From NCBI GenBank assembly GCA_051599415.1, contig AP039690.1, forward strand, positions 496,001-560,000: DNA of 64,000 nt. The letters run 5' to 3'. The stretch comes from Savitreella phatthalungensis (Eukaryota). Within the stretch, counting starts at the first letter, position 1. Each line of letters starts with the position of its first letter. Of this stretch, positions 34,530-36,464 are shown piece by piece. Under the pieces are notes generated by a model that searched no databases, had not been told where the DNA came from, and saw only the letters and a program-made list of their open reading frames with translations. Position numbers and translations under genes: made by a program.

Positions 34530-36191
34530 ATGCCTAGCTTCAGTCAAGCATCCGAGTTGCAGGCCTGGGCCGCACTCCAGAAATACTATGACACAACCGG
34601 CAAAGCTCTCGTCGTCCGTGAACTCTTCAAGGAGGACCCACAGCGCTTCGAAAAGCTCTCTCGGACGTTCGACGGGCTACCGAGTGGAGAAGGATCTATC
34701 CTCTTCGACTTCTCAAAGAACATCATCGATGATGAGGGCTTCAAGCTTCTATGTCAGCTCGCTAAAGAGGCAGGCGTCGAAGAGCTCCGTGATGCCATGT
34801 TCTCGGGCGAGCACATCAACTTCACTGAAGATCGCGCTGTAGGTCACGTCGCTCTCCGCAATGTAGGCAAGGAGCCGTTCATGGTCGACGGAAAGGATGT
34901 CATGCCTGGCGTCCGCTCTGTGCTCGACCACATGAAGGAGTTCTCCGAGCAGGTGCGTTCAGGTGAATGGAAGGGATACACTGGTAAAGAGATCAAGACA
35001 GTCGTCAACATCGGCATCGGAGGCTCCGATCTCGGCCCTGTCATGGTCACCGAAGCACTCAAGTACTATGCAAAGCGCGACATGACCGCCCACTTCGTCT
35101 CGAACATCGACGGTACACACATGGCCGAGGCACTCCGTGCATCAGACCCGGAGACCACATTGTTCCTCGTGGCTAGCAAGACATTCACCACCGCCGAAAC
35201 GTGCACAAACGCCGAAACCGCCAAGAAGTGGTTCCTCGACGCTGCAAAGGAAGAGTCTCACATCGCAAAACACTTTGTTGCTCTCTCCACTAACGAGGAA
35301 GAGGTCAAGAAGTTCGGCATCGACCCGAAGAACATGTTCGGTTTCAGTGACTGGGTCGGCGGACGCTACTCTGTCTGGTCTGCTATCGGTCTCTCCGTCG
35401 CCCTCTACATCGGTTATGACAACTTCCACGCCTTCCTCAGCGGTGCACACGCTATGGACCAGCACTTCAAGACCGCACCAATCGAGCAGAATATTCCTTT
35501 GATCGGCGGTCTGCTCAGCGTTTGGTACTCGAACTTCTGGGGCTCACAGACACATCTCGTTGCTCCTTATGACCAGTACCTCTCGCGCTTCCCCGCCTAC
35601 CTGCAGCAGCTGTCAATGGAGTCGAACGGCAAGGCTATCACCCGCACAGGCGAGCACGTCAAGTATACATCTGGACCGATTCTTTTCGGAGAGCCCGGCA
35701 CCAACTCGCAGCACAGTTTCTTCCAGCTCATCCACCAGGGCACGAAGCTCATCCCTGCAGACTTCATTCTCGCGGCCGAGTCACACAATCCGATCAGTGG
35801 CAACCTTCACCAGAAGATGCTTGCATCCAACTTCCTTGCACAGTCTGAGGCTCTCATGCTTGGCAAGACACCCGACCAGGTCGTTGCTGAAGGAGCACCA
35901 GAATCGCTCGTCCCTCACAAGACCTTCCTCGGCAACCGCCCTACGACCAGCATCCTAGCACAGAAGATCACACCGGCTGCACTCGGTGCCCTCGTCGTCT
36001 ACTACGAGCACCTGACCTTCACCGAGGGTGCCATCTGGAACATCAACTCCTTCGACCAGTGGGGTGTCGAGCTCGGTAAATCGCTTGCCAAGAAGATCCT
36101 GGCAGAGATCAAGGATGGTAAGGCATCCGATGAGCATGACAGCTCCACCAAATCGCTCCTTGGAGAGTTCCTCAAGCGTTCAAAGGCGTGA
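34530..36191 (+). CDS. PGI1: Glucose-6-phosphate isomerase
   Basis: [52 protein letters not shown]. Confidence 0.99.
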
Positions 36192-36464
36192 CTGGCGAAC
36201 CCAAAGATATAGTCATCCAGCTCGCACGAGCGCTTTCCAGCGAGTTGCCCCTTCATAGAGTGTCCACATACAGTCATGCAACATATCAACCATCCTTGTA
36301 TCCACCAGCTTTCCAGTCGAAGCCATCCTTTACCCCACATGCATACTACACGAATGGATGCACAGACGACTGAGAACACACAGTATATCAATTACGTCAC
36401 GGAACTCTTAAGCCCCGAGATGGGCAGCAACCATCGATATGGGCGGTAGTGTGTGATAAAGAGA

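Follow-up and report, generated by a model that had tools for sequence, protein, structure and literature searches.

A candidate stop-codon readthrough signal for importing glucose-6-phosphate isomerase into peroxisomes in Savitreella phatthalungensis

Introduction

Can a single gene for glucose-6-phosphate isomerase (PGI) provide the cytosol with its usual enzyme and, through a leaky stop codon, send a small share of it into peroxisomes? The question is raised by the 3′ end of the PGI gene of Savitreella phatthalungensis, a Taphrinomycete fungus, in which the stop codon TGA is followed by CTG and a short in-frame tail closing on PKI. The gene lies in a stretch of 64,000 nucleotides (GCA_051599415.1, contig AP039690.1, positions 496,001 to 560,000 of the forward strand), the whole of which is called the window here; coordinates without a prefix are window positions. 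Known cryptic peroxisomal isoforms of fungal enzymes belong to mid-glycolysis (GAPDH, PGK, TPI, FBA) and to sections of the pentose phosphate pathway. Readthrough in Ustilago maydis exposes a cryptic PTS1 on Pgk1 (TGA CTC, tail ending AVPKL), Tpi1 (TGA CTA, ending SARI), Rpe1 (TGA CTT, ending PAKL) and Art1 (PMC4207609, Stiebler et al. 2014; Freitag et al. 2012 as cited in PMC3798809). An earlier note on the window, made from its letters alone, proposed that PGI carries a signal of the same kind.

Results

The PGI gene and its 3′ end

The PGI coding sequence (34530..36191, + strand) is intronless and encodes 553 residues ending in EFLKRSKA. The translated frame matches the full PF00342 domain (E 3.6e-239, 794.8 bits, profile positions 1-486 of 486, above the curated cut-off), and its best match among solved structures is 7oyl (E 1.9e-288). 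It is the single PGI match in the 12.7-Mb genome, and its closest named relative is the PGI of Protomyces lactucae-debilis (86%). An ORF with an ATG16 domain lies upstream (33303-33710), followed by a degenerate CACT/CACC repeat tract (34040-34112) that precedes the PGI start by about 420-490 bases. The downstream neighbor, which starts 273 bases past the PGI stop, is an HRQ1-type helicase (36465-39944); it has a Gly-Arg repeat at its N-terminus and matches CDT1 weakly.

Positions 36177-36212 (+) read CGT TCA AAG GCG TGA CTG GCG AAC CCA AAG ATA TAG, that is KRSKA, stop, LANPKI, stop; when this segment was re-read and translated, the stop and tail proved to be exactly as the earlier note had given them. 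The UGA-CU readthrough core is contained in the stop and the CTG that follows (36189..36194). The in-frame extension LANPKI, six codons made only upon readthrough, occupies 36192..36209, and a second stop, TAG (36210..36212), leaves the tripeptide PKI (36201..36209) as the C-terminus and candidate PTS1. Run X3 of another study, from a near-identical strain, contains a 178-base contig that spans 36154-36331 and repeats the stop and tail without difference, which excludes an assembly error; among the four sequencing runs compared, this one contig covers the stop. It differs from the window at four positions, all at or beyond 36241, a contrast with the unchanged stop and tail that is uninformative on selection.

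Every full-length PGI found in close relatives ends in EFLKRSKA or EFLKRSKH, so the TGA is the normal stop of PGI. A homologue search with the C-terminus returned six proteins, none of which has an in-frame extension. The earlier note also pointed to the single residue that separates SKA from SKL; this can be set aside, since the full-length close relatives found end in SKA or SKH and never in SKL. SKA was also considered as a signal in its own right and rejected: it is absent from the validated plant PTS1 list, in the part of PMC3427985 available, and SKA/SKH is invariant in the relatives.

The readthrough context

In U. maydis, UGA followed by CU suffices for readthrough, and the first two bases after the UGA dominate (PMC4207609). 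PGI has this UGA followed by CU, in the form TGA CTG. That CUG is weaker than CUA, as had been cautioned, is a minor objection, since the first two bases dominate in U. maydis, where Table S1 lists PGK with CTC, RPE1 with CTT and TPI with CTA, and since mouse LDHB has TGA CTG together with SRL (PMC4207609, Tables S1 and S2). The caution nevertheless retains some substance: in HeLa cells an A at +3 raised readthrough, and in the tables available from the same paper 3 of 66 U. maydis TGA-CT genes were scored as targeted, with no CTG gene among them, and 58 as ‘not targeted’. No stimulatory RNA structure was found downstream of the PGI stop (z −0.65).

PKI as a peroxisomal signal

PKI had been described as a non-canonical, PTS1-like tripeptide. 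The description is correct with respect to the older pattern [SAC][KRH][LM], which PKI does not fit; however, PKI works in an ascomycete and in plants. It fits [ASPHC][KR][LI], a PTS1 motif derived experimentally in Histoplasma, and it is the C-terminus of Histoplasma Cyb2, whose peroxisomal puncta disappear when Pex5 is missing or when the C-terminus carries a tag (PMC13343957). The extension of PGI thus ends in a tripeptide that acts as a PTS1 in another fungus, and PKI is also among the validated plant PTS1s (PMC3427985, Table A1; PMC9125320). The basic residues invoked upstream of the tail do not adjoin the tripeptide: they lie at −12 to −9 of KRSKA-X-LANPKI, and there are none at −4 to −6. 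In its available sections, the Histoplasma study found no upstream residue preference for PTS1 (PMC13343957). The upstream context of the PKI tail appears modest.

PGI 3′ ends in other fungi

A metagenome scan kept 80 of 584 PGI loci, 13 of them fungal-like and none closer than 78%; removal of a duplicate and of a truncated contig left 11. Viral contigs yielded no PGI locus with the window query, and with the alignment query three loci at 50% or with a 20-residue match, which were left unused. Five of the 11 fungal PGIs have a tail ending in x[KR]L behind the stop (IAENAKL, RLDSEKAKL, MHDREKL and RFEKL after TGA; a tail ending PKGRL after TAG), and six are without one. The xKL form occurs in four of the five TGA-ended genes, versus none of the six with other stops. 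As controls, x[KR]L tails were found in 0 of 126 usable bacterial PGIs (147 given), in 6 of 310 tails from the S. phatthalungensis genome and in 6 of 367 off-frame peptides. The nominal p values against bacteria are ~1e-6 for x[KR]L and 0.017 for the canonical motif, both overstated because the xKL loci cluster in the tree.

In that tree, which is approximate and rooted on a fish outgroup, three xKL loci fall together with Cladosporium, Aureobasidium and Elsinoe; next to them, with weak support, stands the fourth, and all four lie far from the clade of the window. In these four loci (L002, L004, L009, L056), which are mostly Dothideomycete-like, the TGA is followed by ATT, ATG, AGG or CGG, never by CU, and the tails run for 5-9 codons to AKL or EKL. 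Two of the four have E at −3, and the canonical motif is present in just 2 of the 11 PGIs. In the yeast PTS1 consensus that Notzel is said to have given in 2016, E at −3 is reportedly allowed. The xKL tails may derive from one or two origins and have been kept across 76-88% protein identity, and they are candidates for readthrough in non-CU contexts.

Among the 120 best PGI homologues (P0001-P0120), 24 have a run of lysines followed by an in-frame SSL, ASL, STL, SLL or SSI end, compared with 10 of 311 gene ends in the S. phatthalungensis genome for the same plant-list ends. A further 16 of the 120 end in KLA, and locus L006 ends in SKI in frame. The SSL/ASL-type, KLA and SKI ends are possible weak constitutive PTS1s. 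TGA plus xKL is present in four of the 11 distant fungal PGIs, and CU after TGA in none of the four. PGI has, as judged from its C-termini, a family-level tendency to PTS1-like ends, which is not conservation of the LANPKI tail of the window.

A second TGA-CTG case

Ten further sugar-phosphate genes of the same genome were inspected. The tenth, chosen before its end was inspected, was glucose-6-phosphate (G6P) 1-epimerase (L293:1486-2361; G000:C1, about 87.8-88.7 kb), an enzyme that sits between PGI and G6PD (PMC9512073). It ends ADRLS TGA CTG TCA GCA TCT TTG TAG, with the tail LSASL closed by a double TAG. The chance that one of ten further enzymes has TGA-CT plus a listed tail is ~0.3%, and for TGA-CT alone it is 12%. 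In-frame ARL is the C-terminus of three of its five best-scoring relatives, including Taphrina deformans, and a canonical or Histoplasma-type motif closes 19 of 119 homologues; from these ends, a constitutive PTS1 looks to have been replaced by a read-through one. The gene is a candidate for a second case of read-through targeting in this genome. As to its tripeptide, ASL is validated in plants only, according to the accessible part of PMC3427985, and U. maydis has an aldose-epimerase-like gene whose tail behind TGA CTG is non-targeting (PMC4207609).

Other peroxisomal tags in the genome

Pex14 is present in the genome, and several further enzymes carry PTS1-like ends in frame: TPI (L084) ends NANKAKI, RPE (L085) ends AAARM, and G6PD (L166) ends PETKL, of which TKL is PTS1-like only. 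A Fox2/MFE-2-type multifunctional β-oxidation enzyme just outside the window (L135:2021-4939; G000:C2:562021-564939) ends AGSTPKL. Its PKL has P at −3 and the AKI of TPI has I at −1, so that each residue is found on likely cargo. PGK (L082) ends in a double stop, TGA TGA, and among the ten further sugar-phosphate genes no PTS1 was found on TAL, the two FBA-family genes or 6PGD.

The GAPDH gene has a terminal intron of 53-62 bases (L083:2038-2110; G000:C4, from 52137) with the elements GTGAGT, CTGAC and a choice of CAG, TAG or AAG. Use of the first acceptor leads to a stop, and the two later acceptors give TKESKSKL or TKESKL; the SKL of GAPDH is thus a predicted splice-made PTS1. The leader of 6PGD (L170) contains a probable 40-base intron right before the start codon, and its open part holds no PTS2. 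In this 6PGD differs from that of other fungi, in which a cryptic PTS2 has been described (PMC7214817).

One other gene end was encountered along the way. A 385-codon ORF (L148:572-1729, − strand; G000:C2:690572-691729) stops at TGA ACC and is followed by a 15-codon tail ending KKNQAASRI, a good PTS1-like end with no CU; the ORF is presumably a sterol methyltransferase, which it resembles.

Rarity and chance

How often stop and tail would coincide was estimated from 800 kb of contig C2 together with the window (864 kb). This sample contains 356 ends of long ORFs (at least 200 codons), of which 311 were kept after removal of the 45 that have a possible splice donor. TGA-CT occurs at 5 of the 311 ends, PGI included, and a tail ending [ASPHC][KR][LI] in 3 of the 310 genes other than PGI; the two are combined in PGI alone among the 311, and in 0 of 355 others when the splice-donor filter is left off. 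The joint chance is ~1.2e-4 per gene, or 0.35% per 28-gene window and ~0.75 per 6000-gene genome, figures computed with the near-identical pattern [SACP][KRH][LMI], which was picked after PKI was known. A wider tail definition gives ~2 chance cases per genome. At ~0.75 chance cases per genome the PGI case is rare, yet chance alone would produce comparable hits once many windows are scanned; the sequence by itself makes it rare, not decisive.

A frame-blind search of the genome gave 342 matches versus 277 in the control, a result that is uninformative alone and comes from a pattern blind to tails such as ASL. The in-frame check covered all C1 loci, the C2 sample and nine hand-picked C3-C4 stretches, taken from the first 100 of the 342 matches (C1-C4). 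Eighteen in-frame TGA-CT plus motif matches were checked on C1-C4, and only that of PGI ends a frame of at least 100 codons; short last exons are possible among the other 17. One of these 17 is an antisense look-alike at the PGI stop itself (36180-36215, − strand), where TGA CTA is followed by a tail ending QSRL and a further TGA after a frame open for just 38 codons. It is taken as chance, and illustrates that the pattern arises easily.

If chance is the explanation, TGA-CTG and PKI would be nothing but unselected 3′ UTR, with any readthrough product too scarce, or bound too weakly by Pex5, to be of consequence. The expected number of such genes per genome, the 17 of 18 matches behind short frames and the predominance of ‘not targeted’ genes in the U. 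maydis table are all in keeping with it. It leaves unexplained, however, why the gene concerned is a central sugar-phosphate enzyme whose functional neighbor, G6P 1-epimerase, has the same TGA-CTG design, and why orthologues in other fungi have xKL tails far over background. Chance is on balance an unlikely explanation, although a serious one.

Discussion

The reading preferred here is that LANPKI is a genuine readthrough-derived PTS1 and that a small share of PGI enters peroxisomes, to which a probability of roughly 65% is given. The core idea of the earlier note, UGA-CU readthrough exposing a PTS1 on PGI, has gained independent support from the function of PKI elsewhere, the U. maydis context, the companion tags in the same genome and the xKL tails of other PGIs.

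Under this reading, the pgi mRNA would give rise to two proteins. Most ribosomes would stop at the UGA and release cytosolic PGI ending in KRSKA, and a small share would instead insert an amino acid at this CU-flanked UGA, producing PGI-X-LANPKI. In a tested mammalian case UGA-CU readthrough amounts to ~1%, and such a level could suffice because peroxisomes are small, as argued in the same source (PMC4207609). Pex5 would bind the C-terminal PKI and import the extended subunit, possibly together with a normal partner subunit. Inside, PGI would interconvert fructose-6-phosphate and glucose-6-phosphate beside G6P 1-epimerase and G6PD, leading to NADPH. We infer the readthrough at PGI, the import, the piggybacking and the metabolic (NADPH) role alike. 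In Candida albicans, peroxisomes hold 10% of Zwf1 and 5% of Gnd1 (PMC8151747).

Readthrough might also be real and the tail weak or neutral, so that extended PGI is partly imported to no advantage, since the peroxisomal membrane would let sugar phosphates equilibrate. Readthrough PTS1s are gained and lost in a patchy manner (PMC9549241), permeability to metabolites below 400 Da has been mentioned (PMC9512073), and the six tailless PGIs among the 11 other fungi, together with TAL and 6PGD lacking signals here, would fit this picture. It is nonetheless improbable, given that xKL persists in Dothideomycete-like PGIs only 76-88% identical, which suggests selection there at least. That a peroxisomal PGI arises from alternative splicing or carries a PTS2 at its N-terminus is scarcely credible and was rejected: GAPDH of the same genome does have a splice route to SKL, but when all GT-AG introns of 35-250 bases near the PGI stop were enumerated, none led to an x[KRH][LMI] end, and the in-frame leader of PGI reaches a stop 10 codons upstream and contains no PTS2.

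If readthrough-derived import of PGI holds, peroxisomal PGI and G6P 1-epimerase would supply substrate for peroxisomal G6PD, and the UGA-CU readthrough mechanism would extend to Taphrinomycotina. It is tempting to speculate further on a peroxisomal G6P module in fungi, in which PGI and the epimerase enter by UGA-CUG readthrough and are joined by G6PD, RPE, TPI and spliced GAPDH. Hidden PTS1s of PGI would then recur across ascomycetes, behind non-CU UGA in Dothideomycete-like fungi, and PGI would be a widespread dually targeted enzyme of a class that UGA-CU-only screens have missed. This larger proposal is tentative, and we hold it to be rather doubtful as a whole. In a narrower sense, to judge by the xKL tails that follow a UGA lacking CU, the number of such isoforms may be underestimated by searches that look for UGA-CU only.

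Since the mechanism is well documented, the surprise is limited; PGI as its carrier and the Taphrinomycotina lineage are probably new. Table S1, which gives the U. maydis TGA-CT genes, does not include PGI (PMC4207609, as available), and as a cryptic-PTS1 enzyme it was not found in the accessible text of the reviews PMC3798809 and PMC9549241, nor in that of PMC9133605, PMC12316961 and PMC7214817. A term search of seven supplements of the Histoplasma peroxisome proteome gave no glucose-6-phosphate or phosphoglucose entry (PMC13343957, in part). Among the best-ranked matches of a literature search for PGI and peroxisome terms, no cryptic PTS1 on a fungal PGI is reported; Freitag 2012 (Nature) and Freitag 2018 (a book chapter), with their supplements, lay beyond the scope of this search and may bear on novelty.

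Comparison with known systems

The closest parallels are the U. maydis cases, with which PGI shares a UGA-CU stop, a short in-frame tail, a PTS1-type end and a role in central carbon metabolism. Its tail shares P at −3 with Pgk1 and I at −1 with Tpi1. It differs from them in the enzyme, in the Taphrinomycotina lineage, in the CUG context and in combining both non-standard residues in one tripeptide. Mammalian LDHBx and MDH1x likewise are peroxisomal isoforms produced by UGA-CU readthrough at ~1%, with TGA CTG in mouse LDHB (PMC4207609, PMC4359377). However, these are NAD dehydrogenases of redox shuttles with the canonical ends SRL and CRL and with conservation shown, whereas PGI is an isomerase known here from the tail of one species.

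Cyb2 of Histoplasma capsulatum provides the precedent for a C-terminal PKI with Pex5-dependent import in an ascomycete; in contrast to the PKI of PGI, which lies behind a stop, that of Cyb2 is constitutive and in frame, in another upstream context and with no readthrough (PMC13343957). The kinetoplastid glycosomes resemble the arrangement proposed here in that PGI, G6P 1-epimerase and G6PD reside together in a peroxisome-type organelle. In glycosomes most of the pathway has moved, whereas in S. phatthalungensis no more than a minor part of an otherwise cytosolic PGI would do so (PMC9512073). If this import does take place, fungal peroxisomes would be one step nearer the glycosome plan.
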